Source: an uncultured Alphaproteobacteria bacterium (GTDB taxonomy: Bacteria; Pseudomonadota; Alphaproteobacteria; HIMB59; GCA-002718135). From it: a stretch of 64,000 nt of DNA. The position numbers were made by a program, and so were the translations under genes. The stretch covers positions 2,007 through 66,006 of the forward strand of contig CABYXC010000009.1 of NCBI GenBank assembly GCA_902522865.1, read 5' to 3'. The first letter of the stretch is position 1. Every line of letters begins with the position of its first letter. Below the pieces are notes generated by a model. That model searched no databases. It was not told where the DNA came from and saw nothing but the letters and a program-made list of their open reading frames with translations. Positions 37,952-56,199 of the stretch are shown piece by piece.

Positions 37952-38496
37952 TAATCTTTTATTCTTCCAACGACATTAAGATTTTGATCAGCTATTAATA
38001 TTTCACCGGAAGTTACTGCCTGACCAAAGATAGCAGCGATTACTACGTAGTGTGTAACAAATACTATATTACCTTCATTTTCTAAATTGTTTATAAAATT
38101 AATTAATTTTTCTAGTTGTGGCTCTTTATTTTTATAAAATTTTGGATCATAAAAAGAATTAAGAGCATTAAACGTTTCAAATTTTTTGAATGCTAGATTT
38201 GCTGTTTCTTTACAACGACACCATTCACTAGATAAAACTAAATCTATAGAAATATTATTTGTGTCAAAAAAATTCCCTAATTCAATAGATTGTTCTCTAC
38301 CAACACTATTAAGATTCCGCTGAGTAGAACAATCAATAATATCAAAATTATCAGGATCTCCATTACCAGGAGCTAATGCATGTCGAATAAATATTAATTT
38401 ATTGTTTTGTTTTAATAGCTCTACATAATCTGAATTAGCATTACCTGATAAAGAATAAAAAAAAGTAAGTAGAATAATAATTAATTTCTTAATCAA
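37948..38496 (-). CDS. secreted histidine phosphatase-superfamily protein (PGAM-like branch)
   Basis: Signal peptide MIKKLIIILLTFFYSLSGNA, the RHG-type motif FIRHALAPG, RCKETA, and late VTHY. It overlaps the upstream PBP gene by 8 nt. Confidence 0.65.
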   Translation of the reverse strand: MIKKLIIILLTFFYSLSGNANSDYVELLKQNNKLIFIRHALAPGNGDPDNFDIIDCSTQRNLNSVGREQSIELGNFFDTNNISIDLVLSSEWCRCKETANLAFKKFETFNALNSFYDPKFYKNKEPQLEKLINFINNLENEGNIVFVTHYVVIAAIFGQAVTSGEILIADQNLNVVGRIKDY

Positions 38497-39814: not shown

Positions 39815-41497
39815 TTAGAATGAAAATGTGGCATTGAGTAAATACACTGGTCTAGAAGTAGTTCCCTCAACACTTTTATCCGCTTCTGCTACTTCAAAAC
39901 TAATATCTAGACTATTAGAATTAAGAGGAATTTTTAATTTAACACCGTACCCGCCACTTGCCACTTCTGTTCGACTAAACTCACCTGAAGCTGGTCGTTT
40001 ATAGTAGGTAGCACCAACACCAAGATGGATATATGGTTCAATACGTATAGACTCTTCCTTTTTATCTTCTTCTCCTTCTAAAAAAGGATAAAAAGGTCTG
40101 CTCAATTCTGTTCGCAGAAAAAAACCTTGATCACCAGACATATTACCTGATTCATAACCAGACATTTGTCCTGGTCCTGTTATATTCATTTGTTCTGAGA
40201 TAATTAAACCTCTATCGCTAACAAGTTTTTGAAAAACAAAACGTGTGTTCAATAAATAATCTCTAAATATTTGCCTATTCAAATTAATATCACTATTCCA
40301 TTTTATAAAATTTAAAGTGGAACCAACACGGGATAATGTTTTTGTATCTGATGTTTTATTTGTATACATAGGAGTACCAAACTTTAAAGCTGAGCTAGCT
40401 TTAAGCGAGAAAGAATCTAAAAAAGATAAGTTAGTAGTTGTATATTTTAACTCTAGAGCATTGTACTCATCGTAAAAGTTATCTTCTGTGATGTTAGGTA
40501 GTATTGAATAATCTCTTCCTTTAATCCATTGCCAATCTAATGAAAGATTATTTTTTATAAGCCTTGTATTTTTTATTTGATATTCAAGACCAAAGTTGAT
40601 TTGTTTGGATTCCCCCTTTTTTTCTAGTCCGTTGGGTTCCGAATAAGATTCATTAACAGCGCCAAATACAGAAAAGTCTGATGCAAGAATTGGTACTTTA
40701 CCACCAACAAGATAGGCTTCTCGAAAATCAGTCCGTTTAATTATTTCTGTATCATCTATTGGCACATTAACACTATTTTCAGGATCTAAGACGTAAGCTG
40801 CATAAATATTTTCACCGTAACCAAAAGGACTGTTAAAACTTAAATAAGAAGTAAACTGATCTTTTCCTGCTGTTTCAGATAATCCATTTGAATAGGTAAA
40901 ATAACCATTAACTAATTTATGTTCAGCGTTTAATTGCAATGAAGAAGTTCCAGGCTCCTCTCCTGCCTTAATCGTAGTTTCTAATTCAACACCTGGTAAT
41001 TCTCGTGATTTAATAATCGATTTTTCAATGACGGGATATTCTAATCCCTTAATACCAACAAGTTTTTTAAAATATTTTTTAATTGGCTTAGAAATACGTT
41101 TATCTAGTTGTGAGTAATCAATTGATTCAATTTTACCAGGAAAAACAATGGCTTTTACCTTAGTATTTTGTTCAATCGTTTGAGGTGGAACAATAAAACG
41201 GGTTAAAAAATATCCATTTAAAACATACAGTTGTTCTAAAGCAATCAATAAATTATAAAAATCTTTTAATGTTATTATTTTAAAAATTTTTGATTTAAAT
41301 AAATTTTTACGAAGCTCTATCATTTCTTCAATTTCATTTTCAATCTCAATACCAACAAAATTAAATGAAATATTTTCTGCACCAGGTGGAATAACTAAAC
41401 CTGTTTCATAAACAATATAATTACCAGTATTAGTAAAAACAGGATATGTCATAAATGAAGTAGAGATAAAAAAGATAAAAGATAAAAAATATCTCAT
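39815..41497 (-). CDS. two-partner-secretion outer-membrane transporter (ShlB/FhaC/HecB family TpsB)
   Basis: Signal peptide and a POTRA-like region (KAIVFPGKIESIDY...LVGIKGLEYPVIEKSIIKSRELPGVE...IKAGEEPGTSSL). Alternating-hydrophobic barrel strands and a terminal ...LLNATFSF. The start codon abuts the tpsA1 stop codon. Confidence 0.85.
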   Translation of the reverse strand: MRYFLSFIFFISTSFMTYPVFTNTGNYIVYETGLVIPPGAENISFNFVGIEIENEIEEMIELRKNLFKSKIFKIITLKDFYNLLIALEQLYVLNGYFLTRFIVPPQTIEQNTKVKAIVFPGKIESIDYSQLDKRISKPIKKYFKKLVGIKGLEYPVIEKSIIKSRELPGVELETTIKAGEEPGTSSLQLNAEHKLVNGYFTYSNGLSETAGKDQFTSYLSFNSPFGYGENIYAAYVLDPENSVNVPIDDTEIIKRTDFREAYLVGGKVPILASDFSVFGAVNESYSEPNGLEKKGESKQINFGLEYQIKNTRLIKNNLSLDWQWIKGRDYSILPNITEDNFYDEYNALELKYTTTNLSFLDSFSLKASSALKFGTPMYTNKTSDTKTLSRVGSTLNFIKWNSDINLNRQIFRDYLLNTRFVFQKLVSDRGLIISEQMNITGPGQMSGYESGNMSGDQGFFLRTELSRPFYPFLEGEEDKKEESIRIEPYIHLGVGATYYKRPASGEFSRTEVASGGYGVKLKIPLNSNSLDISFEVAEADKSVEGTTSRPVYLLNATFSF

Positions 41498-42320
41498 TTA
41501 TAACCTTTGGATACTAATTGCGTCTACCTGAGGAAAAGACGTAATGAATTCATTTTTAATTAAAGCAGCGTTAGACGCACCATCAACAGAAATAAAAGAA
41601 ATTATTCGAGATACGTCATCGAAAACATCTTTATTAATTTTTTCCTGTACAACAATTTTTTCTTTTTCTTCATCTGGTGCTACACCTGGAAGAGGTGGTG
41701 TTGAAGCCCCAGCTAAAATATTTGCTGTTGGTATTGCTTCTAACGCACCAGAATTTTCATTTATTGGAATTGGATTTGATGTAAAACCAGATAATTCATA
41801 ATTTATTGTAACATCTTTATCATTGCCAACATCTGCATCTGCAAAACTGCCAGAAGAACTAATAGAAAGATCTGAACCTGTTAAGTTTAAACCCGATATA
41901 GTGCCACCACTTGTAGTGGCCGTTGTAGTTCCATCATATGTTTTATCATTTGCCGAAGCACCTGATACTGTAAAGTTAGCTGACATTAAAGATCCAGTTG
42001 TAGCCGTAACAGTTGAAAGATTAATATCTCCCATACTTGCATTTGTTAATGTGCCTCCATCTAAAAGTTGTATATTGAGATCTTCAGCCGTCAAACTTGC
42101 TAAACTAGCTACTACATCACCTGCTCCCGCATCTCTATCGCTATCAGAAACACTATTATCATTTGAATCACTTGCAATAATTTCTAAATTTGATGCGGTG
42201 TTAATATTGCTATTAATGTTTACATCTCTTCCTGCATGAAGGTTGAGACTACCCGTACCAGTGACAGTAATGGCAGAACTAATAGTGATGTCAGTATTAG
42301 CTTGAAGAGTAACATCAACA
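41498..42320 (-). repeat. tpsA 3' conserved module, copy 1 (more divergent); approximate inner edge
   Basis: Starts VDVTLQANTDITISSAITVTGTGSLNLHAGRDVNIN and contains DKTYDGTTTAT. Confidence 0.7.
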
Positions 42321-45300
42321 CCGTTATTCAGAAATTCTTCTAATTCTGTTTTATTAATTACGATATCATCACTTGCATAATCTGTATAAGACGTATTACC
42401 TCGGATAATTGTATCTGACCATAAAGATATATCGCCAGTATTATCACCCGCATCGCTTGCACCATCACCTTTAGCACTTCCTGCAACCATTAAGGTACCA
42501 GTATCATCTAGAGCAATATAATTTGGAAATTGGTCAGCATCTGCTAATGTTGCCGTAGAAGTATCAAGTTCATTCGTACCTGTTTTACCAAAACCAATAG
42601 TATATTGTAAACTTGCACCAGTTAGAGAGGTATCTTCAAAACCAAATAAATATATATCATCTTCAGCAAAATCCCCTATTGCTATTCTATTACCATCACC
42701 ATCAACAGCAACTGTAGCCGCCCCCCAACCAGTTATTGGTGTTTCACCAGATGCTGAAGTATCATAATTTTTACCTCCAGTGTAATTATTCCCTATGGAA
42801 GCTGCATATGTGGCACCAGTAAAATCTGAGTCACTAAAAGTAAACAAGTGTACCGCTCCATAATTATCATCAGCATCATTTGTTGTATTTTTTCCATCAT
42901 CTTTAGGTGAACTTACTGCTAAGATTTTTCCATCTGCTGTTAAACCAAGCCCTATTCCAAATTGATCATTATTGCTTAATATATTAAGTCCGTTATCACC
43001 CAAGTCCAAACTCTTTGTTAAAGTATTTGTAGGGGCATAATCTATTCCTATTGTTCCAACATGAGTTGGGTTATTAAAATCAGTTGATGGGTTTCCATCA
43101 CTATTTGTTGTTTGATCAAATGTGATTAAGTAAACTGCTCCAGCATTACTATGACCTCCATTTGCTCCATCATCTTTCATTGCTCCAACTGCAAGACGTG
43201 ATCCATCATCAGTCAAAGATAATGAAGTAAAACTATCACCAGAACCAAGAGTACCAATTGATAAATCATAACTAGATGAATTATAAGTATGTCCAATTGT
43301 TCCTACGTGTGTTGGATTAGTAAAATTTGTATCATCAAATTTTATTGTATACACTGAACCACTATCAACCCCGCCTGATGTACCACTAAGTTGAGACAAA
43401 ACTAATCTATCCCCGTCACCATCTAAGGCGGTTCTCCAAATATAATCACCAGCTGTTAAATCATCTAAGTCTAAACTATAAGTTCCAGTGTAACCTTTTC
43501 CAATTGTCCCTACGTGTGTTGGATTTTTAAATGCTGAGCCATCATCGAAGGTAAATAAAAAAACAGCACCAGTATCTGTTGCGCTATCATCCGCTCCATC
43601 AACTCTAGCAGCAACTATGGCCATTCTATTACCATCACTGTCTAAGGCAGTTCCTTGACCAAATCTATCATCATCATCAAGATCAATATCTAGAGAACTA
43701 CTTCCCGCACTTCCATAACCATATCCAATTTTTCCGTACAAACTTCCACCTGTAAATTCATCATCATTAAATCTAATGAGCATAACTTCACCACTTCTAC
43801 CTAATGACCCTCCATTCCCATCTGCATACATTGATGACATTACAAGGCGACTACCTGTTTCATTCAAGGCTACACCTTCACCAAATTGATCATTATTAGA
43901 TAATGAACTTTCCACATCTATATCTTTTTCTCCTGTATAACGGTTTCCGATTGTTCCAACGTAGGTTGCAGAAGCAAGGTTGTCGGTTAGCGTATATAAA
44001 TTTACAGCTCCTGATTTAGGGTTGTTACCACCAGGGTTAGATTGATCCCAGTAGCCAACAGCTAATCGATCAGCATCTTTATCAAAGGCAACAGAGTTTC
44101 CAAATCGATCTCCATTAGCCAAAGTTACTGCATGAACATTTTCGTCACTTGCATCAAGATAATCATAATCTTTTCCTATAGATCCAATATAGGTTGGTAT
44201 ACCTGTTGCAGCAGAAACAAGGCTTCCACTATTCATAAACTTAAATAATCGTACAGCACCTGAGTTACCTTGATTATTATTTTTACCATTATCTCGCCAA
44301 GATCCAATAGCAAGCAGAGAACCATCGTGATTAAAAGAAACTGCTGAACCTAATTCATCGTTTTTTTTGGGGGTTAAATCAGTATCGCTATTCGTATCAA
44401 AATCATTTGCGATTACAGCACACATGTTAGTTTTCGCACAATCACTGTTAGTGCTTAAATTTTGATAACCATTGCCAATTCGTGAAACAACTTTACCTCC
44501 AGAAAAATCTGTATCATCAAAAGCAATTATAAATACTCCGCCAACTCTATCTTTTTGATAATTATTAACATGTTCTTCAAAACCATCATCACCTTTTAAT
44601 CCAACAGCCAGAACATCTGCATCACCGTCTAATGCTACACTTGAACCAAATAAATCCCAATCACTTAAAGTATTACCTTTTTTAACAATTCCCTGTCGAA
44701 ATAAATTCACATCCTTAGATCCTGTATAACCACCTCCTATTATTCCAGTAATTTCACCACCTGAGTAAGAAGTATCATCAAAGCTTATTAGATAAACCGC
44801 ACCAGCTTCTGTTGTGCCATCTTTTTTTGCATCATCACCTGTTGCTCCAACTGCCAATCTAGTCCCTGTACTATTAAAAGATACAGAGCGACCAAACTTG
44901 TCATCCTTTTGAAGAAATGAATTATCTACATTTTTTCCTCCAGTGTATCCTTTTCCAATACGACCTATCAGTGTTGCATTAGTATAATTTCCATCATCAA
45001 ATTGGTACAAATATACCACTCCAGTTCTTTTATTATTATTTGATTTACCATTTCTAGCACCTACAGCCATTAAAGTAGCATCATCACTGATTGCTATAGC
45101 ACTTCCAAAATTTTCAACCTTAGTTAGATTAGACTCCCCTACATCGTTTGTTGATGTAGGGGCATAGTCCTTTCCAATTAAGCCCAAATGAATCCAGTTT
45201 TGAGACGTTACACCCGTTCCAACAGTAATATTTTTTGGATCAAGTAATAATTGGCCACCCTCTGATATATTGACATTTGATAATCCAACATGTCGTAATG

Positions 45301-46828
45301 TGTCTTTGGAGGAAATTTCAACAGCACCTCCTGTTATGCCTGTTGCATCAATATTACCAAGCATAGTCGTTTCTTGATCACTCCAAATGATTGCTGTACC
45401 TGCATCGCCATTAGAAGAGGAAATATCAATATTCGATCCATCTGATATTAAAATAGTTTTTGCGTTAACAAGTGATCGTCTTTCACCCCACCTATCAATA
45501 AAAACATCTTGTTGCTGGGTAGTTCTTGTTAAATTATTATTACCCTGAAATTCTCCCCCAATACGAACTAACCCTCCATGGGTATTACCTGCTACATTAA
45601 TATCAGTAGATAATAAACGAATGTAACCTTCAGACTCTATATCAATGAAACCGCCTTGTTGACTGCCTTTTGAAGACATAGAGCCTGAAGACATAATGTT
45701 TGGTGCTGATACTAGAATATTACCACCCTTAGTATTTCCTGATGTATTAATTTCACTGCCATGACTTTGAATAATTTTATAATCAGATTGAATATCAATT
45801 TTACCACCAGCATTAGTAGAGGAAGAAGCATTTAGAGTTCCACCTAAAGATATTTCACCTGTACTATTAAAACTTATTGTTCCTGCATTTGCACCTGACA
45901 CATCAACTTTACCGCCAAAAGATAAAAAGTTACCTTCTGCGTTAATTTTACCATTTTCTTTGGCTGTTAAATTTCCTGCAACGACAATATCACCTGCACC
46001 CCCAAGGGTAATGACGCCATTTTTTTGTGAGGCCGTAGTTGCAACAAGATTTCCTGGAATGTTAACAGCACGCTGAACAACATTTTTGGCAGCACCAACA
46101 TCAATGTCTATTCTATTTGCCGTTGATGTTCCTACATGATTGATAATGGTATTTAATTCTTCTGCATTTTGATCGAGTAACGTTATCGCTTCACTAAATG
46201 GAATGCTTACTTGTAAAAATTTATCACCGCTCAAGTCTAACGTAATTTCTTTTCCAGCCCCTATTCCAATTTTACCAAGGTTCGCATTAATCGTACCTTC
46301 ATTATTAATAGCGCCACCTAAGAGAGCAGTAAAACCTCCATCCAAAGTAGTAATGGAACCTTTATGAATAATAGAAGAAAAAATATTATTTACATTATCT
46401 GCTTTAAATAAAAATTTATTATTGAGAAAATCATCATTGGATAAAGCCAGCGTGGAGGCAGCAAAGGAATGCGCATTGATTGTCGACGTGGGTGTAAAGT
46501 AAACACCGTTTTCATTCACCACAAAAACTTTACCATTGGCATTTAATACACCAGCAAGCGTTGTTGGATTTCCTGAGACAACTCTATTTAAAGCACTTGC
46601 ATTAACAGAAGGTTGATTAAAGGTTACACTATTTTGTGCGCCAATATCAAAACTCGTCCATTCAATAATTGATTGTTCGGAAGACTGGGTAATCGTCATG
46701 GAATTTTGTGATGAACTGACAGAAATATCCCCGGAGATAATATTTTCCCCGCTTGGAAGAGAGGAAGCGTAGACGAATTGTGTTTCTAGAAAGAGAAAAG
46801 TGAGAAGAAAAATAAAAGCATTTTTCAT
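41498..46828 (-). CDS. TpsA-type giant exoprotein 1 (TPS domain + beta-helix + about 12 FG-GAP-like repeats + conserved C-module), 1776 aa
   Basis: Signal peptide. The TPS (haemagglutination-activity) domain reads IIEWTSFDIG...ALNRVVSGNPTTLAGVLNANGKVFVVNENGVYF...AHSFAASTLALSNDDF. Gly/Asn/Ser/Thr-rich beta-helix repeats follow, then repeated xDxFGxSVAxDxDGxRLAVG...GAVYLFxFDD units and a C-terminal KTYDGTTTAT motif. Confidence 0.9.
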   Translation of the reverse strand: MKNAFIFLLTFLFLETQFVYASSLPSGENIISGDISVSSSQNSMTITQSSEQSIIEWTSFDIGAQNSVTFNQPSVNASALNRVVSGNPTTLAGVLNANGKVFVVNENGVYFTPTSTINAHSFAASTLALSNDDFLNNKFLFKADNVNNIFSSIIHKGSITTLDGGFTALLGGAINNEGTINANLGKIGIGAGKEITLDLSGDKFLQVSIPFSEAITLLDQNAEELNTIINHVGTSTANRIDIDVGAAKNVVQRAVNIPGNLVATTASQKNGVITLGGAGDIVVAGNLTAKENGKINAEGNFLSFGGKVDVSGANAGTISFNSTGEISLGGTLNASSSTNAGGKIDIQSDYKIIQSHGSEINTSGNTKGGNILVSAPNIMSSGSMSSKGSQQGGFIDIESEGYIRLLSTDINVAGNTHGGLVRIGGEFQGNNNLTRTTQQQDVFIDRWGERRSLVNAKTILISDGSNIDISSSNGDAGTAIIWSDQETTMLGNIDATGITGGAVEISSKDTLRHVGLSNVNISEGGQLLLDPKNITVGTGVTSQNWIHLGLIGKDYAPTSTNDVGESNLTKVENFGSAIAISDDATLMAVGARNGKSNNNKRTGVVYLYQFDDGNYTNATLIGRIGKGYTGGKNVDNSFLQKDDKFGRSVSFNSTGTRLAVGATGDDAKKDGTTEAGAVYLISFDDTSYSGGEITGIIGGGYTGSKDVNLFRQGIVKKGNTLSDWDLFGSSVALDGDADVLAVGLKGDDGFEEHVNNYQKDRVGGVFIIAFDDTDFSGGKVVSRIGNGYQNLSTNSDCAKTNMCAVIANDFDTNSDTDLTPKKNDELGSAVSFNHDGSLLAIGSWRDNGKNNNQGNSGAVRLFKFMNSGSLVSAATGIPTYIGSIGKDYDYLDASDENVHAVTLANGDRFGNSVAFDKDADRLAVGYWDQSNPGGNNPKSGAVNLYTLTDNLASATYVGTIGNRYTGEKDIDVESSLSNNDQFGEGVALNETGSRLVMSSMYADGNGGSLGRSGEVMLIRFNDDEFTGGSLYGKIGYGYGSAGSSSLDIDLDDDDRFGQGTALDSDGNRMAIVAARVDGADDSATDTGAVFLFTFDDGSAFKNPTHVGTIGKGYTGTYSLDLDDLTAGDYIWRTALDGDGDRLVLSQLSGTSGGVDSGSVYTIKFDDTNFTNPTHVGTIGHTYNSSSYDLSIGTLGSGDSFTSLSLTDDGSRLAVGAMKDDGANGGHSNAGAVYLITFDQTTNSDGNPSTDFNNPTHVGTIGIDYAPTNTLTKSLDLGDNGLNILSNNDQFGIGLGLTADGKILAVSSPKDDGKNTTNDADDNYGAVHLFTFSDSDFTGATYAASIGNNYTGGKNYDTSASGETPITGWGAATVAVDGDGNRIAIGDFAEDDIYLFGFEDTSLTGASLQYTIGFGKTGTNELDTSTATLADADQFPNYIALDDTGTLMVAGSAKGDGASDAGDNTGDISLWSDTIIRGNTSYTDYASDDIVINKTELEEFLNNGVDVTLQANTDITISSAITVTGTGSLNLHAGRDVNINSNINTASNLEIIASDSNDNSVSDSDRDAGAGDVVASLASLTAEDLNIQLLDGGTLTNASMGDINLSTVTATTGSLMSANFTVSGASANDKTYDGTTTATTSGGTISGLNLTGSDLSISSSGSFADADVGNDKDVTINYELSGFTSNPIPINENSGALEAIPTANILAGASTPPLPGVAPDEEKEKIVVQEKINKDVFDDVSRIISFISVDGASNAALIKNEFITSFPQVDAISIQRL
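45200..46828 (-). repeat. tpsA 5' conserved module, copy 1 (signal peptide to LLLDPKNI boundary); approximate inner edge
   Basis: About 540 codons alignable between all three tpsA genes, ending ...SKDTLRHVGL...GGQLLLDPKNIT. Confidence 0.75.
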
Positions 46829-46834
46829 AAATGC

Positions 46835-47700
46835 TTATAGACTTTGAAAACCTAAACCTTCAGTATTTGGAGTAGATTGTATGTTGGCTTCTCTTGCTAA
46901 TTGAAGGGACATATTTGATCCAACTATAGCGTCTACAGATACGAAAGGAACAATTTTGTTAATGTCTCCAATCATGTTTTCCACAATTTCTGTTTGATCA
47001 TTACTGGTCACTTCTACATTATTATTTTCGATTGAAGAACTGCTCGAACTTGTCCCAGTTATAGCTGCTGTGACACTCTCGGTAATAGCAGTACTACTCG
47101 TATCTGTCACATCCATCGTGCTACTTAAATAGCCACTGAGATCATAGTCCACTGTTGCATCTTTTGCTGCACCAATAGTTGCTGATGTGAATGTGGCTGT
47201 ATTTACAAGTGCTAAGTCACTACCAACTAATGTTAATCCTGAAACAGATCCCGTTGTAGCAACTGTTGCTGACGTTGTGCCATCGTGCGCTTTATCACTG
47301 ACAGCTGCTCCCGAACCACTAAAGTTTGCTGATTGCAGTGTTCCTGTTGTAGCCGTAATAGTAGCAAGTTCAATGTTCCCCATACTGGCATTACTCACAC
47401 CACTGCCGTTATTAAGTGTTATATCTAAATCACTTGCCGATAAACTTATAGATGTTGTTCCATCACTTTCATAGGCCGCTAAAATATCACCGGTTCCGCT
47501 ATCACGCTGCGCACTCACGACATTATTAGCACTAGTATCACTGGCAATAATTGCTAAATTGCCAGAAGTACTAATTGACTTATTAATATCAACATCACGT
47601 CCAGCATGCAGACTTAATGTTCCTGTGCCAGTTGTTGTAATGGGCGCGTTAATTATAATATCGGTGTTCGCTTGAAGTGTCACATTCACATTGGTATCAA
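46835..47700 (-). repeat. tpsA 3' conserved module, copy 2; approximate inner edge
   Basis: Starts VNVTLQANTDIIINAPITTTGTGTLSLHAGRDVDINKSISTSGNLAIIASD. By manual alignment there are about 26 mismatches in the first 210 aa against copy 3, and the DNA is visibly near-identical (e.g. 47500-47640 vs 51240-51380). Confidence 0.8.
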
Positions 47701-50557
47701 GAAGAGCTTCAAGCGCATCCACACTAATTGTAATATCACTACTAGAATCTTCAGTATAGGCTGTACCATCAAGATAATTAGATGACGTCAATAATTCTAC
47801 ACCTCCACTTGTATATCCTAAAGCAAGGTTGGAACCATCAGAACTTAAAGCCATTTTTTGTACATCTGCACCATTCAAAGCATAAAATGAGGAAATTAAT
47901 GTTGGGTTTGAAAAACTTGTATCACTAAAACCGTACCCTTTAATTATATAATCACCTGATGTGTTAGATGATATTAAAAGAGTGCGTCCGTCTCCACTTA
48001 ACGCATGAGCACGAACGCCACGATTTCCGCCAGCAGGGGCATCGAAGCTAATATTATTATTACCAGTACACGATGAGCAATCATGTGCAAATTGAAGAGC
48101 AAGTGAAGGATTAGAAAAATTATTATCTGAGAAAGTAACTATATTATGTTCAGAACCTGTAAACGAAAGAGCTGTGGCATCATCGGTTAAATTCAAATTA
48201 TATGGTATATTATTACCTAATGTATGGTAATTAATACTCGTTATGGGGAAAGTAGAATTATATGAATATGGTGTACTTCGACTCTCAGCCCAGAGTACCC
48301 TTGTTATTGTGGGAGATGTAAAATTTGTATCACTAAATGAAATTAAATGAATACCTTCAAGCACTGCTACTGCCATTCTTGATCCATCAGAATTAAGAGC
48401 GATCCCACCTCCAAATCCCTGGTTAAATAAATCTAATAGTTGTAAATTTTGACTGTAGGCTGCATTAGGAGTTTCGGAGATATGCCCAACAATGGTTGGA
48501 TTAGTAAAATTAGTATCGTCAAATTTAATAGTATAGACAGAACCCGCTTTACCGGGGGCGTTATGTATTGGTGCTCCTAATACCAGACGATCACCATCAT
48601 AATCTAAATCAAACTGAACCGGATAAGGATCATTTGATGGAAATTCAAAATCTAAACTGCCAGGATGAGTACCTGATAAAGCATCATAACCTTTACCTAT
48701 AATACCTCTAAGAGTTGGATTGGAAAAGTTTGTGTCACTAAACTGAAATAAATAAAGAGCTGGATAATTATTGCTACTATCATTATAGCCATCGTCAAGC
48801 CGTGAAAGTACACCAAGTTTTGTTCCATCTCCGCTTAATCTTACACCGGACATTCCAAATTGATCATCATTTGCCATATTAAAACTAGTCAAGTCGACTG
48901 CACTATTAGCAGAACTATCTATTATTGATTGATATGTCCAATTTTTTGAGGTGCCAACATCCCCGATAGTAATATTTTTAGGATCTAAAAGTAAATGACC
49001 ACCAGCACTAATTGAAATATCATTTAGTCCAATATGACGAAGTGTATCCTTTGATGATATTTCAACTGACCCGCCTATTGTTCCTGTTGCAAGAATTTTT
49101 CCCAGCATCGTTGTTTCTTGATCACTCCAAATGATTGCTGTGCCTGCATCACCATTACTAGAAGCAACGTCAATGATAGCGCCTTTGTTTATAAAAACAA
49201 ATTGTGCATTTTTCATACTTGGAAGAATTCCCCAACGATTAATAAATGTTTCTTCTTGTGCTGTTGTCCGTGTTAGATCATTACTTCCTTGAAACGCACC
49301 ACCAATTCTTACTAAACCACCTCTACTAGTACCACTCGCATCAAGGTTTGATGTATAAAGGGTTGCTTTACTGCTTGCTTCAATAGCAAGTCGTCCTCCC
49401 ACACCATTCAAACCTGCAGCTATAATATTTCCTGATGTTTCAAAATTTTTTGCACTAATATTTATGTCTCCTCCTTCTGTTCCAGAGGCATCTAAAGTGC
49501 TATTCGATGTTTGTATAATTTTATTTGATGACGAAAGAGTAATATTACCTCCTTGTGCCACTGTTGATGATGCATCAATGGATCCATCAAGATAGATATT
49601 ACCTATCGATGCAAAGTTAGCATTACCTGAATCTTCACCTGATACATCTACTTTTCCAGTAAAAGAGATTAAACCCGCATCAATATTAACGAGACCTTCC
49701 TTTGCAGTCATGTTTCCTAAAACATTAATAGGCGCTGTACTTCCTCCAAGAGTAATAACACCATTTTCTTGTGAAGCTGTTGTGGCAACAAGATTACCAG
49801 GAATGAACACGGCGTTGTTTAATGCTGTTTTAGCTGATCCAATATCAATATCTATAGTGTGAGCATTAGAAGATCCAGCATGTTGAATGAGAGCTTTAAC
49901 ATCTTTATTTTCGTCATCAAGAATAGTCGTGGCCAATTCTATTGGCACCGCTACTTGTAAAAACTTGTCTCCGCTTAAATCTAAGGTAATTTCTTTTCCC
50001 GCACCAAGACCAAGTTTTCCAAGGTTGGCATTAATAGTCCCTTCATTATTGATCGCACCACCTAGTAGAGCAGTAAAGCCTCCATCTAATGTCGTGATCG
50101 ATCCCTTATTAATAATTGATTGAAGGGATGATTGATTTGAAGAACTAAAAGAAAAAATCTTATTAAGAAAATTATCATTGGATAAAGCCAGCGTTGATGC
50201 AGCAAACGAATGAGCATTGATTGTTGCAGTTGGTGTGAAATAGACACCGTTTTCATTCACCACAAAAACTTTACCATTCGCATTTAATGCGCCTGCCAGT
50301 GTTGTTGGATTGCCAGAAATAACTCTATTAAGGGTACTAGAACTACTTGAAGGTTGTTGAAAGGTAACAGTATTATTTTCTCCGATATTAAAACTATTCC
50401 ATTCAATAATAGCCTGGTTTGATTGTTGGTCGATGGTCATCGTTTGAGTATCAGAGCTAATTGAAATATCACCTGTAATCGTTGTGTTACCACTTGGCAG
50501 TTCAGCCCATAAATAACAGGAAGAAAAAGTAATAATTAAAGTAATTAAGACCCTCAT
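46835..50557 (-). CDS. TpsA-type giant exoprotein 2, 1240 aa
   Basis: Same TPS domain (LNRVISGNPTTLAGALNANGKVFVVNENGVYF), a degenerate FG-GAP-like core, and a C-module nearly identical to that of exoprotein 3. Confidence 0.9.
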   Translation of the reverse strand: MRVLITLIITFSSCYLWAELPSGNTTITGDISISSDTQTMTIDQQSNQAIIEWNSFNIGENNTVTFQQPSSSSSTLNRVISGNPTTLAGALNANGKVFVVNENGVYFTPTATINAHSFAASTLALSNDNFLNKIFSFSSSNQSSLQSIINKGSITTLDGGFTALLGGAINNEGTINANLGKLGLGAGKEITLDLSGDKFLQVAVPIELATTILDDENKDVKALIQHAGSSNAHTIDIDIGSAKTALNNAVFIPGNLVATTASQENGVITLGGSTAPINVLGNMTAKEGLVNIDAGLISFTGKVDVSGEDSGNANFASIGNIYLDGSIDASSTVAQGGNITLSSSNKIIQTSNSTLDASGTEGGDINISAKNFETSGNIIAAGLNGVGGRLAIEASSKATLYTSNLDASGTSRGGLVRIGGAFQGSNDLTRTTAQEETFINRWGILPSMKNAQFVFINKGAIIDVASSNGDAGTAIIWSDQETTMLGKILATGTIGGSVEISSKDTLRHIGLNDISISAGGHLLLDPKNITIGDVGTSKNWTYQSIIDSSANSAVDLTSFNMANDDQFGMSGVRLSGDGTKLGVLSRLDDGYNDSSNNYPALYLFQFSDTNFSNPTLRGIIGKGYDALSGTHPGSLDFEFPSNDPYPVQFDLDYDGDRLVLGAPIHNAPGKAGSVYTIKFDDTNFTNPTIVGHISETPNAAYSQNLQLLDLFNQGFGGGIALNSDGSRMAVAVLEGIHLISFSDTNFTSPTITRVLWAESRSTPYSYNSTFPITSINYHTLGNNIPYNLNLTDDATALSFTGSEHNIVTFSDNNFSNPSLALQFAHDCSSCTGNNNISFDAPAGGNRGVRAHALSGDGRTLLISSNTSGDYIIKGYGFSDTSFSNPTLISSFYALNGADVQKMALSSDGSNLALGYTSGGVELLTSSNYLDGTAYTEDSSSDITISVDALEALLDTNVNVTLQANTDIIINAPITTTGTGTLSLHAGRDVDINKSISTSGNLAIIASDTSANNVVSAQRDSGTGDILAAYESDGTTSISLSASDLDITLNNGSGVSNASMGNIELATITATTGTLQSANFSGSGAAVSDKAHDGTTSATVATTGSVSGLTLVGSDLALVNTATFTSATIGAAKDATVDYDLSGYLSSTMDVTDTSSTAITESVTAAITGTSSSSSSIENNNVEVTSNDQTEIVENMIGDINKIVPFVSVDAIVGSNMSLQLAREANIQSTPNTEGLGFQSL
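48940..50557 (-). repeat. tpsA 5' conserved module, copy 2; approximate inner edge
   Basis: Ends ...SKDTLRHIGL...GGHLLLDPKNIT. Long nucleotide-level matches to copies 1 and 3, for example CATTCACCACAAAAACTTTACCATT in copies 1 and 2. Confidence 0.75.
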
Positions 50558-50563
50558 TAGTGT

Positions 50564-51455
50564 TTATAGACTTTGAATACCTAACCCTTCAGTATTTGGA
50601 GCAGATTGTATGTTACTTTCTCTTGCTAATTGAAGAGATATGGTTGAACCAACGATAGCGTCCACAGATACAAAAGGAACAATTTTATTAATATCTCCAA
50701 TCATATTTTCCACAATATCTCTTTGATCCCTACTAGTCACTGCGGCAATACTATTTTCTTCTGAAGAATTATTTGAATTGCTACTTGATGAACTGCTAGA
50801 ACTAGCTTCAGTGATTGCAGCTGTGACACTCTCGGTAATAGCAGTGCTGCTTGTATCTGTTACATCCATAGCACTACTTAAATAGCCACTAAGATCATAA
50901 TCCACTGTTGCATCTTTTGCAGATCCAGCAGTTGACGATGTAAAACTTGCTGTATTCACCACTGATAGATCACTACCAACTAACGTTAATCCTGAAACAG
51001 AACCAGTATTGGAAACAGTCGCCGAGGTATTACCATCATAGGTTTTATCACTAACGCCAGCTCCTGACGCACTAAAGTTGGCTGATTGTATTGTTCCTGT
51101 TGTTGCCGTAATGGTAGCAAGTTCAATATCCCCCATACTAGCATTTGTAATACCGCTTCCATTATTAAGTGTAATATCCAAATCACTCGCCGTTAAACTA
51201 ATCGCTGTCGTCCCATCACTTTCGTAGGCTGCTAAAATATCACCGGTTCCGCTATCACGCTGGGCACTCACTACATTATTACTTGATGTGTCACTCGCAA
51301 TAATAGCTAAATTACCAGAAGTACTAATCGACTTATTAATATCAACATCACGTCCAGCATGCAGACTTAATGTTCCTGTACCAGTTGTTGTAATGGCTGA
51401 GTTAACAGTAATATCACTATTTGCTTGCAACGTCACATTCACATTTGCATCAAGA
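50564..51455 (-). repeat. tpsA 3' conserved module, copy 3; approximate inner edge
   Basis: Starts VNVTLQANSDITVNSAITTTGTGTLSLHAGRDVDINKSISTSGNLAIIASD. It carries a longer Ser-rich linker than copy 2. Confidence 0.8.
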
Positions 51456-54400
51456 AGATTTTTTAATTCTGTTGTATTAATAATCACATCATCGCTTGAC
51501 GAGTCCGTATACGAATACCCCCCTGATAAAATATTTTCTTTCAGTAAAAGTGCACCACCAAGACCATAACCAGTGTTGCTATTATTGTAACCCAAATCCA
51601 TTGGTGTACCTATAACTAACATTTTACCTGTATCGTCCATGGACATTGCCCCTCCTGCGTATTGGGTTTGATAATAATCAGTATTACCACTAATTTTTGA
51701 TTTAAAAGTACCGTTTGGAGTTATTGTTTGCTTTATTTCTGGGTTCCCAAAACTAGAATCTGAAAAACCAATTAGATGCAGTCTACTATCATCAGATCCA
51801 CGACCACTTACAGCTAAACGGGTACCGTCCCCACTTAATGCTATGGTGACATGATGCACTTTTTCTGTCCAATAATTAGTATATGAAGATGCAGTGTTAT
51901 ATCCACCAGATACTACATGACCCCAATCAAAAGTTTCTGGGAGTATTTTACTATTATTATATAGATATCCTGAATTGCCCGAATAACAACTTTGTGTTGC
52001 CTGACAAGTAATACTGCTATCATTTTCTGATGTAATTGCCCCTACATAAGTTGGTGTAAGAAAATTACTATCAGCAAAGGTGAAAAGATGAATGGCATTC
52101 TGCGACTTGCTTGCGGTATTTACCACAGATCCCGATGTCGTAACTACAGAATTACATACACTTCCAGCGTTAGCATAAGAATTTGAACAATTAGCATAAT
52201 TATGGAGAACGACCAACTTTGTTGCATCATTTGATAATTCTATATCCCAACCAAAATAAGATCCACCAGCTCGCCACATTATTCGATTATTTTCAATTGG
52301 TGCATCATAGCCAATATCTAAACTATGGGAGCCAGTGAGATCTATACCTTGCATATAACCAGTATTACCCTTACCAATTCTTCCCGTAAATGATGGCGAA
52401 GAGAAGTTTGTATCACTGAACGAAATTAAGTTTATTCCTTCACGTTGTTGAAGATTTGTTTCCATAGTAAAATCTTGGTAAGTTAGCGCCAAGCGTGAAC
52501 CATCTGCATTAAGTGCAACGTCTACGTGATGACCCCATGAACTAGTAAATTCAGATTCTCCAGCGTACATATCAAGATCATTCGAAGTAAGTGGGATATC
52601 AAAACTAGAAAATCTAGTTCCTATTATGCCAACATGTTGGGGGTTAGAAAAATTGGTATCATCAAATTTTACTGTTCTTACACCGGGTATAGAGAGAGCG
52701 GTGCCTACCGTGTAGTCATTAATAACTGAATTTCTTCTTATCGCGTCAAAAGAATAAACTAAACGGTCGCCGTCTTGATCAAGTGCAACGTTACGCATAT
52801 ACATACCAGACGTATCAAGATCATTACTACCGCTTGCCCCATTATATAACTGTCCTCTTAATGTTGCATTACTAAAATCCGTATCATCAAAGGTAAAAAG
52901 TAAAATTCTACCTGTTTGACGTGGACAACCCCAACCACAATGAGTGGGTATCTGTACTGATGCTATAGCTAAATTTTTTCCATTACCACTTAATGCAACA
53001 CTAGATCCAATTCTTGTGTTTGTATCAGAATAAACAACAGTACCACCTAAACTACCCTCACTACTATTTAAATCATAGTCCTTACTGCCGGTATAATCAA
53101 AACCAATCACGCCTTGTAAAGACCAACTTTGTGATCCCGCAGTATCACTGATGATAATATTTTTTGGATCAAGAAGAAGATGACCACCCTCTACCATCTT
53201 GATATTTTGTAAACCTAAATAACGAAGAGTATCTTTTGATGAAATTTCTACTGAACCTCCTTGAAGTCCCATTGCATTAATATGCCCTAACATGGTTGTC
53301 TCTTGATCACTCCACAAAATTAGTGTGCCAGGTGTTTGATCTGATTCAATATTGAGGGTTGATCCATCATTAATAAAAAGTGTGTTAACATTTTCCATTG
53401 TTGGTACATTTCCCCACCTTGTTACAAATGTTTCTTCTTGCTCATTTGTTCTAGTGAGATCATATCCTCCTTGAAAGGCACCTCCTATGCGTACAAGCCC
53501 TCCTTGTTGTGAGCCTGAGGCAGTAATATCCGATGATAGAAGTCGAATAGAATTTGTTCCTTCTATATCAATGCGACCACCCTTAGCCGTACTCCCATTT
53601 GATGACAGTGTACCTGAGGAAATAATCGTATTACCTGATAATGCTATTGATCCTCCATTTGTGCCATTAGCGGAAATAAGACTTTTATCCATTTGCATGA
53701 TAGACGGTGATGTAAGTTCTATTGCACCACCAGTATTGTTTTGAGAGTCAGCTAGAATAGATCCAGAAACACTAAGTTCTCCTTTACTGGTAATTGTAAT
53801 GCTCCCCGGTAAATCATCTGATACATCTATTGTTCCACCAAGAGAAAGAGTATCACTGGTAATATTAATGTCCCCTGTTGACGTTGCTTTGAGAGATCCA
53901 TCAATTTTAATAGTTCCACTTCCTGATAAAATAATTTTCCCCTTTTGTTGTTCAGCTTTATTTGCAATCAAAGAGCCAGGAATATTAATTGCATTCGATA
54001 AAATATTTTTAGCTGTTCCAACATCTAACTCTATAGTGTTTCCCTTTGTTGAGCCACTATGACTGATTAAAGAGTCAAGTGTATTGCCTTCATTATCAAC
54101 AACTGTTGATGCTGTATCAAGGGGAACTGCTACTTGTAAAAATTTGTCTCCACTTAAGTCTAGTGCGATTTCTTTTCCAGCGCCAAGACCAACTTTTCCA
54201 AGGTTTGCATTAATGGTACCTTCGTTATTGATCGCACCACCTAGTAGTGCAGTGAAACCTCCATCCAAAGTTGTTATCGATCCTTTATTGATAACAGATT
54301 TCAATGACGATTGATTTGAAGAACTAAAAGAAAAAATATTATTGAGAAAATTATCATTGGAGAGAGCAAGCGTGGAGGCAGCAAAAGAATGCGCATTAAT

Positions 54401-54739
54401 TGTAGATGTTGGTGTAAAATAGACACCGTTTTCATTGACAACATATACCTTACCATTCGCATTCAAAGATCCTGCCAGTGTGGTAGGATTGCCGGAGATA
54501 ACTCTATTAAGTGCACTAGAACTTGATGATGATTGATTAAAGGTAACGGTATTATTTTCTCCGATATTAAAACTATTCCATTCAATAATGGCTTGATCCG
54601 ATTGTTGCTGTATCGTCATCGACTGATCATTGGAGGTAATAGTAATATCACCTGCAATAGTTGCATTACCACTTGGCAGCTCAGCCAATACAAAGCAGGA
54701 ATAAAAAATGGTTATAATTAAAGTAATAAAGACTCTCAT
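50564..54739 (-). CDS. TpsA-type giant exoprotein 3, about 1391 aa
   Basis: Same TPS domain. The ATG at 54739 (MRVFITLIIT...) aligns with the start of exoprotein 2 (MRVLITLIIT...) and is preferred over the TTG at 54781 in the ORF track. Confidence 0.9.
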   Translation of the reverse strand: MRVFITLIITIFYSCFVLAELPSGNATIAGDITITSNDQSMTIQQQSDQAIIEWNSFNIGENNTVTFNQSSSSSSALNRVISGNPTTLAGSLNANGKVYVVNENGVYFTPTSTINAHSFAASTLALSNDNFLNNIFSFSSSNQSSLKSVINKGSITTLDGGFTALLGGAINNEGTINANLGKVGLGAGKEIALDLSGDKFLQVAVPLDTASTVVDNEGNTLDSLISHSGSTKGNTIELDVGTAKNILSNAINIPGSLIANKAEQQKGKIILSGSGTIKIDGSLKATSTGDINITSDTLSLGGTIDVSDDLPGSITITSKGELSVSGSILADSQNNTGGAIELTSPSIMQMDKSLISANGTNGGSIALSGNTIISSGTLSSNGSTAKGGRIDIEGTNSIRLLSSDITASGSQQGGLVRIGGAFQGGYDLTRTNEQEETFVTRWGNVPTMENVNTLFINDGSTLNIESDQTPGTLILWSDQETTMLGHINAMGLQGGSVEISSKDTLRYLGLQNIKMVEGGHLLLDPKNIIISDTAGSQSWSLQGVIGFDYTGSKDYDLNSSEGSLGGTVVYSDTNTRIGSSVALSGNGKNLAIASVQIPTHCGWGCPRQTGRILLFTFDDTDFSNATLRGQLYNGASGSNDLDTSGMYMRNVALDQDGDRLVYSFDAIRRNSVINDYTVGTALSIPGVRTVKFDDTNFSNPQHVGIIGTRFSSFDIPLTSNDLDMYAGESEFTSSWGHHVDVALNADGSRLALTYQDFTMETNLQQREGINLISFSDTNFSSPSFTGRIGKGNTGYMQGIDLTGSHSLDIGYDAPIENNRIMWRAGGSYFGWDIELSNDATKLVVLHNYANCSNSYANAGSVCNSVVTTSGSVVNTASKSQNAIHLFTFADSNFLTPTYVGAITSENDSSITCQATQSCYSGNSGYLYNNSKILPETFDWGHVVSGGYNTASSYTNYWTEKVHHVTIALSGDGTRLAVSGRGSDDSRLHLIGFSDSSFGNPEIKQTITPNGTFKSKISGNTDYYQTQYAGGAMSMDDTGKMLVIGTPMDLGYNNSNTGYGLGGALLLKENILSGGYSYTDSSSDDVIINTTELKNLLDANVNVTLQANSDITVNSAITTTGTGTLSLHAGRDVDINKSISTSGNLAIIASDTSSNNVVSAQRDSGTGDILAAYESDGTTAISLTASDLDITLNNGSGITNASMGDIELATITATTGTIQSANFSASGAGVSDKTYDGNTSATVSNTGSVSGLTLVGSDLSVVNTASFTSSTAGSAKDATVDYDLSGYLSSAMDVTDTSSTAITESVTAAITEASSSSSSSSNSNNSSEENSIAAVTSRDQRDIVENMIGDINKIVPFVSVDAIVGSTISLQLARESNIQSAPNTEGLGIQSL
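53123..54739 (-). repeat. tpsA 5' conserved module, copy 3; approximate inner edge
   Basis: Ends ...SKDTLRYLGL...GGHLLLDPKNII. Confidence 0.75.
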
Positions 54740-54885
54740 AATATTTTTACGAGGCCTTTTTTTTATAAGGGTTTTGACCAACCTTAATTAAGATTTATTA
54801 TAGATCAAATTTAGTAAATATTTACAATTAAATTATAACGGTATTTAAAGAAAAATAAAAATTATTGCATTATGTAGCTCTAGTC

Positions 54886-56199
54886 TTAGCTTATTCGTTG
54901 ATAAATCCTACCCATATAAGAGAAAAGGGTCAAGGCTCTGGTAATAAAGAAAAGGCAGAGAGATAGCCATAATCCTGTATTCCCAAAACTTGCTATTAAA
55001 AAGAAAGAGACAACAATATAGATGGCGACAGAGACGATCATCGCATTACGCAGTTCAGTTGTTTGCGAGGCTCCAACAAAGATACCATCAAATTGAAAAC
55101 AAAAAGAAGCCGCAAAAGGAATAATAATAATCCAGTAAGAATAAGAAAAGCTGATCTCTCGTATATTTGGTAAGTCTGTCATTGTAATAATGTAATAATT
55201 TTTGCTTAAGAAAAAGATGGCACAAATTATTAATCCTGTTGCCGTGCTTAAGATAAAGGAATTTTTTATCACATCATTTAATAACTGTCGGTTTTTTGAT
55301 CCAATAGAGTATCCAACGATACCTTCGGTAGAAAAGGCATAGGCATCAAGAACATAAGCGGATAACATAATAAAATTAAGCAAAATGGTATTTGCCGCTA
55401 CTGTTTCTTCGCTGATAGAATTACTAAGATAGGTAAAATATAAAAAGGCAAAAGCAAGAAGAAGAGATCGGATAAATATATTAAGATTAATATTAAAAAT
55501 ATTTTTTACTTTACTAAGATTAAAAATTTTTTTTGAATTAAATTCTAATTGGGTCATCTTGCTTAAAGCATAGAATGTATAAAATAAAAAGATTATTGTT
55601 GTCAGTGTTGAAGCTACAAGTGTGCCTAAGGCAACACCTAAAACATTTAAATTAAAAAATAAAACAAAAACTAAACTTAAAATTATATTTGCAAGAGAAT
55701 AAAATCCTACAATGAGACTGGATGTTTTAGTTTTTTGTAAACCAATAAACAATCCTGTAATTACAAAAATTGTAAGCTCGCCAAAAGAAGAATAAATACG
55801 AAAAGTAAAATAATCGTTAAAATAAAGTTTTGTTTCCTGTGATAACTCAAAAATAGATAAGGAAATATTATATATGTATGTTTGAAGAATAATTAATAAG
55901 AGGGAAATAATTATAACAAAAGCAATATTACGTAAAAAAATATTTATAATTTCTTCATAATCATTGGATCCATCTGCCTGTGATATCATACCTACCGTTC
56001 CTGAACGTAAAAAACCAAAACTGCCAAAAAGAATGGAGAAGATACTTGCTGCAATACTGGTAGCAACCAAGTAACTTGCATTATCAAGATTGCCCATTAA
56101 ACCTGTATCAACTATAGCTACAAAAGGAACGACTAAATTTGCGAAGAAAATCGGGATAGATAATTTAAAAATATTTTGAATGGATGATTTTGACGACAT
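54886..56199 (-). CDS. MATE-family efflux transporter
   Basis: 437 aa with 12 hydrophobic segments. The N-terminus LSIPIFFANLVVPFVAIVDTGLMGNL is typical of the first MATE repeat. Confidence 0.75.
   Translation of the reverse strand: MSSKSSIQNIFKLSIPIFFANLVVPFVAIVDTGLMGNLDNASYLVATSIAASIFSILFGSFGFLRSGTVGMISQADGSNDYEEIINIFLRNIAFVIIISLLLIILQTYIYNISLSIFELSQETKLYFNDYFTFRIYSSFGELTIFVITGLFIGLQKTKTSSLIVGFYSLANIILSLVFVLFFNLNVLGVALGTLVASTLTTIIFLFYTFYALSKMTQLEFNSKKIFNLSKVKNIFNINLNIFIRSLLLAFAFLYFTYLSNSISEETVAANTILLNFIMLSAYVLDAYAFSTEGIVGYSIGSKNRQLLNDVIKNSFILSTATGLIICAIFFLSKNYYIITMTDLPNIREISFSYSYWIIIIPFAASFCFQFDGIFVGASQTTELRNAMIVSVAIYIVVSFFLIASFGNTGLWLSLCLFFITRALTLFSYMGRIYQRIS

Follow-up and report, generated by a model that had tools for sequence, protein, structure and literature searches.

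How does a bacterium with a compact genome come to hold three giant tandem genes that resemble each other at both ends and differ in the middle, and what might such an array do in a population? The question is raised by a 64,000-nucleotide (nt) stretch of contig CABYXC010000009.1 (here called the window; guanine plus cytosine (GC) content ~31%, genes very tightly packed), in which an array of three tpsA genes takes up 13.2 kb. We consider it probable that the locus is a two-partner-secretion (TPS, type Vb) operon with three tandem TpsA exoproteins and one TpsB transporter, and that recombination in the conserved ends of the tpsA genes deletes gene units and exchanges their variable cores. The host appears to be a SAR11-type bacterium (Pelagibacteraceae), because the homologues are named Pelagibacteraceae and related loci are present in marine single-cell genomes.

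All genes of the array lie on the minus strand. The promoter-proximal tpsA copy 3 (A3, 50564..54739) encodes 1391 amino acids (aa) from the ATG that aligns with its paralogues, and its open reading frame (ORF) could be extended in 5' direction to a TTG at 54781. It is followed by A2 (46835..50557, 1240 aa), A1 (41498..46828, 1776 aa) and tpsB (39815..41497, 560 aa), the start codon of which abuts the A1 stop codon. The TPS domain PF05860 was detected in all three TpsA proteins above the Pfam cut-off of 33.5 bits (E=5e-23 to 1.6e-26; 1.6e-26 for A3 and 1.7e-26 for A2), TIGR01901 matches in the TpsA proteins, A3 included, reach 68-70 bits (cut-off 29.1 bits), and the conserved NPTT and NANG/NENG motifs are present. 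A1 also matches FG-GAP_2 (PF14312, E=1.2e-26) and YDG (PF18657). By eye, the TpsA N termini are hydrophobic and end in ..LWA/ELPSG and ..VYA/SSLPSG, suggesting putative Sec signal peptides. TpsB is an Omp85-type transporter that matches PF03865 (ShlB; E=4.9e-19, 69.4 bits, cut-off 22.7), with POTRA_2 at 23.2 bits just below its 24-bit cut-off.

A first-pass annotation, made from the letters of the window alone, had described shared 5' and 3' modules around variable cores, and a three-way alignment recovered these at the places it gave. The borders were set so that the N module ends at LLLDPKNI (at aa 528 in A3, 529 in A2 and 534 in A1) and the C module starts at VTLQAN (at aa 1102, 959 and 1506, respectively). 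A3 is thereby divided into an N module (aa 1-528, 53156..54739) with putative signal peptide, TPS domain and beta-helix, a core of 573 aa (aa 529-1101, 51437..53155) and a C module of 290 aa (aa 1102-1391 plus stop, 50564..51436). The corresponding parts of A2 are an N module (aa 1-529, 48971..50557), a core of 429 aa (aa 530-958, 47684..48970) and a C module of 282 aa (aa 959-1240 plus stop, 46835..47683), and those of A1 an N module (aa 1-534, 45227..46828), a core of 971 aa (aa 535-1505, 42314..45226) and a C module of 271 aa (aa 1506-1776 plus stop, 41498..42313). Thus, the N modules measure 528-534 aa.

Copy number, core swaps and breakpoints

In a scan of one genome per GTDB species, 30 SAR11 single-cell genomes were found to share the synteny MatE-tpsA(n)-tpsB-binding protein-phosphatase. 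An A1-type gene alone is present in 15 genomes, A2+A1 in eight and A3+A1 in two; the complete A3+A2+A1 array occurs in three genomes besides the window, and in one further genome A3+A2 is followed by the end of the contig. The first-pass annotation had proposed that recombination at the gene ends deletes and shuffles cores and creates variation in the population, and had named uniform divergence along the genes, or an identical three-copy arrangement with identical cores in all relatives, as outcomes that would speak against it. Neither is seen: divergence is not uniform, and one, two or three copies are present in the SAR11 single-cell genomes, together with chimeras and swapped cores. The window tpsB is 91-99% identical to its counterpart in the closer genomes and 84-85% in three more divergent ones. 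At the protein level, the A3 N module is 96-99% identical to the A3 N module of five single-cell genomes and 75% to that of locus L029, and the A3 C module is 96-99% identical to its orthologues. A protein search yielded relatives of all three types, A1, A2 and A3, and among them homologues of A2 at 97-98% identity in single-cell genomes and metagenomes.

The hexamers that separate the tpsA genes are conserved by position across these loci. ACACTA at the A3|A2 junction (50558..50563) is kept in L003, L006 and L008 and reads GCACTA in L029; GCATTT at the A2|A1 junction (46829..46834) is kept in all multi-copy loci. The A1 type is the single-copy type in the 15 genomes and in divergent metagenome loci, including those where TpsB is only 55% identical. 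Since it is present in all relatives, divergent ones included, the long-core, single-copy A1 type is presumably ancestral, and A2 and A3 would have arisen by duplication and repeat loss in one subclade.

Comparison of alleles places the variable segment between ~20 codons past LLLDPKNI and ~30 codons before VTLQAN. Up to codon ~550, A3 of the window is mostly 97-100% identical at the nt level to A3 of L003, L008 and L022, apart from a patch of 77-84% at codons ~126-225 in L003 and L022. Identity is 44-90% at codons 551-1072, and after codon 1072 it is mostly 95-100%, with single alignment windows down to 87%. Between the conserved modules, the allelic cores of A3 are 99, 93, 53-54 and 35% identical and those of A1 99, 85, 62, 56 and 51%, and alleles with 96-100% identical modules hold cores that are only 35-62% identical. 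Clustering of all available cores at 80% aa identity sorted those of SAR11 into at least 14 types, of which five are short and nine are long. These types are freely combined: the A2 core is found with three A1 cores, and three A3 core types are found with or without A2. These alignments show cores swapped as cassettes between otherwise 96-100% identical alleles.

Recombination between paralogues has left breakpoints in the two-copy alleles. In L001 (AG-914-F14), the flanks of which are 96-97% identical to the window, the first of the two genes (L001_g1) is a chimera of an A3 5' part and A2: 68 of the 71 informative sites that precede alignment column 440 match A3, and 431 of the 439 sites beyond this column match A2 (Fisher p=2e-71). 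The switch sits at a 29-nt run common to A3 and A2 (54309..54337 in A3, 50130-50158 in A2), and the gene is the product expected from loss of one 4182-nt unit by recombination in the N module. In the A3+A1 alleles, the final ~100-130 nt of the C module hold a switch from A3-type to A2-type sequence (p~1e-8), and A3 is followed by the hexamer of the A2|A1 junction; here, the A2 unit was lost by a crossover in the C modules. Shorter exchanges are seen as well. An A2-type patch of ~120 nt (columns ~441-560) is present in the A3 genes of L003, L006 and L022 (p=9e-20), with its left edge at the 29-nt run; it is 91-93% identical to A2, i.e. has diverged by 7-9% since, arguing against a very recent exchange. 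Another first gene is a 3/2/3/2 mosaic, and mosaic A1 alleles in four genomes are 98-99% identical to the window up to nt ~750 and 77-86% thereafter. Exchange between the paralogues is thus patchy and not very recent.

When the three copies of the window are compared with each other, divergence along the genes is not uniform, as the first-pass annotation had anticipated: nt 1-617 show 83% identity between A3 and A2, the last 895 nt show 81%, and most windows of the core show 40-60%. Its count of ~26 mismatches in 210 aa between the A3 and A2 C modules was exact (184/210 identical; 81% nt and 86% aa identity between the two modules), and the first 205 aa are similarly close (179/204 identical). 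The similarity that it called near-identity with long identical DNA runs is real but of lower degree, at 81-83% nt identity and with longest exact runs of 50, 41, 32 and 29 nt. Likewise, the alignable 5' module of ~540 codons is shared up to LLLDPKNI, but the high similarity of A3 and A2 is confined to the first ~0.6 kb, and codons ~206-528 show 48% aa identity. A1 is 72-77% identical to the other copies at the nt level, limited to 0.5-0.8 kb; an exact 35-nt run is shared by the N modules of A1 (46503-46537) and A2 (50244-50278).

Synonymous divergence (pS) between A3 and A2 has values of 0.29-0.54 at the two ends (the first ~180 codons and the C module) and of 0.6-0.8 in most of the middle, which fits a more recent common ancestry of the ends. 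Between A1 and A2 or A3, pS is 0.5-0.8 and near-saturated along the whole gene, and ends and core differ in nonsynonymous divergence (dN) only. The conservation of the A1 ends is therefore attributed to purifying selection and not to recent exchange, and the earlier suggestion that recent exchange had shaped them too was not borne out.

These values bear on the most economical alternative, namely that functional constraint alone keeps the ends alike for the shared TpsB and for anchoring, that the cores drifted apart after old duplications and that recombination plays no role. The saturated pS of A1 with its end-core contrast in dN, the grouping of C modules by position across genomes and the low ratio of nonsynonymous to synonymous diversity (piN/piS) of 0.07-0.17 in the modules are all in line with this. 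Constraint does not account for the lower pS at the ends of A3 and A2, for the sharply bounded chimeras and paralogue-switching breakpoints of the two-copy alleles, for core swaps between alleles that match at 97-100% as far as the breakpoints or for copy numbers from 1 to 3. Chimeras and swaps contradict it as the sole explanation, and we regard it as unlikely in this form.

Assembly, transcripts and the tempo of exchange

All single-cell and metagenome assemblies used here were built from short reads, and it could be argued that the assemblers jumped between modules and that real genomes all carry the same array. Errors of this kind do occur. In L085 (575-7979), the last 58 codons of an A3-type C module are joined directly after MatE and followed by two 100% identical type-9 genes. 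We rejected this locus as a real array, since it is most likely an assembly loop, although it may represent a deletion remnant. Metagenome contigs also break at the module borders. Furthermore, in four metagenome scaffolds (L084, L086-L088) an A1 leader (nt 1-~365) is fused to an A2 body between the A2 and A1 genes (8104-11838 in L084), and this body matches that of the neighbouring A2 gene at 100% over 3.3 kb. As these are short-read scaffolds, they were not accepted as evidence on copy number, and a four-copy allele is unproven. The link sequence in three of the four scaffolds, among them the third gene of L084 (L084 g3), holds substitutions found in neither parent, arguing that the A1-5'::A2 chimera is real. 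The scaffolds could therefore reflect a four-copy allele or a three-copy allele with a converted 5' end that was wrongly assembled. Thus, of the 1-, 2- and 4-copy alleles and chimeric cores that the first-pass annotation had suggested looking for, one and two copies are found, and four copies appear only in scaffolds that cannot be trusted on this point.

Several observations nevertheless speak against an assembly origin of the variation as a whole. Paralogues share no exact run above 50 nt, and the run at the A3::A2 switch has 29 nt; such lengths are short compared with the final k-mer sizes expected of assemblers. Two-copy alleles are present in 10 independent single-cell assemblies and in JGI/ENA contigs, with differing mosaic patterns. 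Some 5' leaders are only 77-80% identical to either window gene and could not be made by joining window-type sequences, and the chimeric link of L084 g3 has the substitutions of its own noted above. In addition, sequence depth, for which the assembler word depth of contigs served as a crude measure, was 14, 42 and 42 for the window-type A3 core versus 27-37, 65-78 and 67-84 for the A2 and A1 cores in three marine metagenomes, and 21 versus 25-27 in a fourth. About half the depth is thus seen in three of four metagenomes only, in agreement with cells that lack the A3 core. Taken together, we give an assembly artefact little chance of explaining the locus.

Two further sets of contigs were noted. 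In the LUL* metagenome contigs (L060-L065, L071-L074), A3- and A1-type genes are split into two or three ORFs by frameshifts, which could be sequencing errors or genuine pseudogenes. Joints in Logan contigs were not used as evidence, as their sides measure only 20-37 nt. The only recurring one, which links the sequence directly before the A3 start with A2 at nt ~30 (50528->54746, 4217 nt skipped), was seen in one DNA run and one RNA run and, with a shorter side of only 24-26 nt, hints at a two-copy allele with an A2-type 5' end.

Metatranscriptome contigs that are 99-100% identical to the window cover parts of A1, A2 and A3, of tpsB and of the binding-protein gene downstream, and one contig of 451 nt crosses the A3|A2 junction without a mismatch; carry-over of DNA is possible in such contigs.

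Tandem copies with homologous ends, together with chimeras, are also the products that a programmed, high-frequency antigenic or phase variation within a clone would give, in the manner of pilE/pilS or msp2. Yet every copy is a complete gene that has a start codon and a putative signal peptide of its own, and no silent cassette is present. Arrangements, hexamers and position-specific modules persist across genomes, sampled at one per GTDB species, in which housekeeping pS is ~0.1. The paralogues are only 81-83% identical, the exchanged patch has since diverged by 7-9%, and a direct-repeat scan revealed neither a simple-sequence repeat nor an invertible element. Programmed variation is therefore about as improbable, in our estimate, as an assembly artefact.

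Predicted heads, their selection and the surrounding operon

The first-pass annotation had found the cores hard to align, but they are not unrelated, since all of them consist of arrays of one repeat. With an iterated hidden Markov model built from A1, a FG-GAP_2-like repeat of ~72 aa was found six times in A3, six times in A2 and 13 times in A1. In an AlphaFold2 model of A2 residues 41-1240, the beta-helix is confident at model residues ~230-480, and the core (~490-890) forms ~27 strands at moderate confidence (predicted local distance difference test score (pLDDT) 50-90). Foldseek comparison of the core model with the PDB returned 7-bladed propellers at a template modelling score (TMt) of 0.5-0.6 over ~400 columns. 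The A2 core is accordingly predicted, with the moderate confidence of the model, to be one 7-bladed beta-propeller; by its equal repeat number the A3 core is predicted to be one propeller too, and the A1 core about two. A PDB sequence search with the A2 core and C module gave chance matches to mTOR only (E~0.9). Only the helix and short beta-helix of the C module are modelled confidently (aa ~1487-1617 of A1); in A1 they are followed by the YDG domain and a tail. A 50-nt stretch in the cores of A1 (43311-43360) and A2 (48495-48544) is 88% identical and encodes the same blade peptide GSVYTIKFDDTNFTNPT; it may stem from an exchange between cores or may simply be the best-conserved blade.

Within core types, piN/piS is 1.14 for the A2 core, 1.68 for the A3 core type of the window, 0.90 for a second A3 core type and 0.40 for the long A1 core, as compared to the low values of the N and C modules. 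The A2 core shows 21 codon columns with synonymous changes only versus 74 with aa changes, and the three closest pairwise comparisons of this kind give a core dN/dS of 2.1-2.8. Where genomes have a core type in common, pS of the core is 0.007-0.017 versus 0.07-0.15 in the purine-biosynthesis genes beside MatE, i.e. roughly 4-20x lower; tpsB and the binding-protein gene show 0.05-0.25 in the same comparison. The low pS suggests that one and the same core has passed recently between genomes whose silent sites otherwise differ by ~10%.

The reading that we favour can be put together as follows. Each TpsA would consist of a signal peptide, a TPS domain, a beta-helical shaft, an FG-GAP-like head and a C module of helix, short beta-helix, YDG-type domain and tail, and a single TpsB would export all three. 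The N and C modules would be kept constant because all copies need the same transporter and the same stalk and anchor parts, and they would double as homology arms for homologous recombination. Between paralogues, recombination would delete and possibly add whole gene units and would also move short patches; with alleles from other cells, it would replace the core as a cassette. The cells of a population would thereby each have 1-3 copies, in varying combinations of the 14 or more core types, and within a core type aa changes would accumulate as fast as or faster than silent ones. Of this, the data show directly which genes and domains are present, that copy number and cassettes are polymorphic, where the chimeras have their breakpoints, how selection differs between cores and modules, and that RNA-derived contigs exist.

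Several points weigh against it. With only 81-83% identity and no exact run longer than 50 nt, the A3/A2 repeats probably recombine with each other only rarely per generation. Each C module has its nearest relative in the orthologue from the same position and not in a paralogue of its own genome, which argues against ongoing homogenisation; of the ongoing gene conversion originally proposed for the ends, the patches and chimeras are left, and these are patchy and not very recent. The genomes compared are short-read assemblies, and L085 is evidently a repeat artefact. A2 and A3 have no Pfam match to FG-GAP_2 or YDG even at E<=5, and searches with their isolated cores and C modules at this threshold returned noise only (FAM194, DUF4886). 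The mean pLDDT of the A2 model is 57.6, and the C-module model lies mostly below 50 beyond its first ~150 residues. A piN/piS near 1 could reflect relaxed constraint rather than positive selection. Finally, we infer two steps: that the TpsA proteins are secreted and displayed on the surface with the propeller exposed, and that a frequency-dependent pressure, such as recognition by phages or grazers or ligand specificity, drives the diversification.

A CdiBAI-like contact-dependent inhibition locus with a polymorphic toxin as its variable part, which the TPS architecture and a variable region between conserved flanks, typical of CdiA, might suggest, is very improbable, as the proteins lack a VENN or related pre-toxin motif, their last 271-290 aa are conserved rather than variable, junctions of 6, 6 and 0 nt leave no room for an immunity gene, and the variable part is a repeat array with a predicted propeller fold.

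The junctions read TAA-ACACTA-ATG (A3|A2), TAA-GCATTT-ATG (A2|A1) and TAA-ATG (A1|tpsB), exactly the form that the first-pass annotation had given. It had also counted the 6-nt spacing as part of a signature and had proposed to test for translational coupling there, but the spacing is no special coupling device: same-strand genes of the window are typically 0-8 nt apart (median 1.5 nt; <=8 nt in 29 of 40 pairs), and tpsB is also separated from the next gene by 6 nt. The tpsA genes are presumably translationally coupled. Downstream of tpsB (37948-39808, minus strand) lie a gene for a Peripla_BP_6/ANF_receptor-type binding protein and, overlapping it by 8 nt, a gene for a His_Phos_1 phosphatase-like protein; both keep this position throughout the related loci and may be part of the tpsA-tpsB transcript. 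A 138-aa ORF with a TTG start on the plus strand within A1 (41823-42239) is probably spurious.

Upstream of the array, the intergenic region between MatE and the first tpsA gene (54740..54885, minus strand) is near-identical in L001, L003, L005 and L008, and is presumed to be a promoter and leader region that travels with the promoter-proximal gene. A scan of the window for consensus promoters and terminators gave fewer promoter-like matches than in shuffled sequences and terminator-like matches not above those in shuffles. In every locus with MatE upstream, the promoter-proximal tpsA begins MRVF.. whatever its core, and in three single-copy loci with a different upstream region tpsA begins MKN... 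The MatE gene (54886-56199, minus strand) is exceptionally variable, with 79-99% aa identity among the single-cell genomes and pS up to 0.6, pS of the purine genes beside it stays at ~0.1, and the first tpsA has a leader that varies together with the MatE allele.

GC content is 0.36-0.38 over the tpsA genes (42001-54000) and about 0.30-0.31 in most flanking windows, and GC skew on the plus strand is strongly negative across A1. Horizontal acquisition was considered for the raised GC content and set aside, as the best homologues are all from Pelagibacteraceae and Gly, Ser, Thr and Asp abound in the encoded proteins; the composition of these proteins probably accounts for it. Scans of the window for tRNA genes and Rfam families found nothing, so that there is no hint of an integrated element. 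For the window TpsB sequence, an exact look-up found no record.

Likeness to known systems and biological meaning

Nearest in function appear to be HMW1/HMW2 of Haemophilus influenzae, with conserved ends and a variable internal head. The two are TpsA paralogues that resemble each other in the N-terminal secretion region and at the C terminus, and their ligand-binding specificity resides in the most dissimilar internal region. In contrast to the array described here, with three tandem genes and one tpsB, they are encoded apart from each other, and either locus has a dedicated hmwB and the glycosyltransferase gene hmwC. No hmwC-like gene was found within the operon, where tpsB is followed by the Peripla_BP_6 and His_Phos_1 genes, and no C module contains a Cys residue, so that the HMW-type C-terminal cysteine pair is absent. 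The FG-GAP-type repeat array of the head also differs from HMW1/HMW2, and no sequence relation was found beyond the TPS domain. The HMW systems are listed in a review of two-partner secretion (PMC5422565).

CdiA and the tpsA-tpsC loci of Neisseria are likewise TpsA systems diversified by homologous recombination in conserved flanks. The central receptor-binding region of CdiA also differs between classes. In these systems, a C-terminal toxin and its linked immunity gene are exchanged and the cassettes are truncated and silent, whereas the genes found here are full-length with a conserved C terminus. For meningococcal tpsA, replacement of 3' ends by recombination with cassettes has been described (PMC3848433). 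The pilE/pilS and msp2 systems comprise one expression site and truncated, promoterless donors, in contrast to the three complete ORFs found here, all of which are matched by RNA-derived contigs.

The same combination of PF05860, PF14312 and PF18657 is present in TPS-FG-GAP_2-YDG/MBG proteins of the 'filamentous hemagglutinin family' from other Alphaproteobacteria (Sphingomonadales, Puniceispirillaceae and Emcibacter), which are 32-36% identical over most of their length (e.g. P0044, P0045, P0048). They are annotated by domain only, and no functional study of them was found. In the literature on hemagglutinins or two-partner secretion in SAR11, Pelagibacter or Pelagibacterales, SAR11 pangenome papers included, we found no description of this locus, and a search for SAR11 adhesins returned only a different, autotransporter system. 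The latter is a very large, repeat-containing surface-protein gene of coastal Pelagibacteraceae that is sometimes located in a hypervariable region (bioRxiv 10.1101/2024.12.23.630198). This adhesin is of type Va with its own barrel and lies next to type IV pilus or type II secretion genes, whereas the present locus is of type Vb with a separate TpsB and is flanked by MatE and the gene for a periplasmic binding protein, with purine-biosynthesis genes alongside. Overall, the surface variation would be of a known style, and distinct in its central propeller cassette, in the tandem full-length copies served by one transporter and in the streamlined, free-living host.

SAR11 bacteria are the most abundant bacteria of the ocean, and their genomes are among the smallest and most economical of free-living cells; yet three giant, presumably secreted proteins here cost 13.2 kb. 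Copy-number variation, cassette exchange with mapped breakpoints, a piN/piS of ~1 or more that is confined to the predicted propeller head and the low pS of the cores make the locus a likely focus of biotic selection in the open ocean. It may offer a handle on what pelagiphages or grazers recognise and on gene-specific sweeps in highly recombining populations, and it suggests that TPS exoproteins here diversify via a central head and not via a C-terminal toxin. Only tentatively do we suggest that the array is a 'surface identity' locus, acting as target or decoy for pelagiphages or grazers or in the recognition of other cells or ligands, with cassettes that sweep horizontally across species-level boundaries through recombination in the conserved arms and evolve under positive selection. 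If this were true, it would provide a compact and testable case of frequency-dependent ('constant-diversity') selection acting on the head of one protein.

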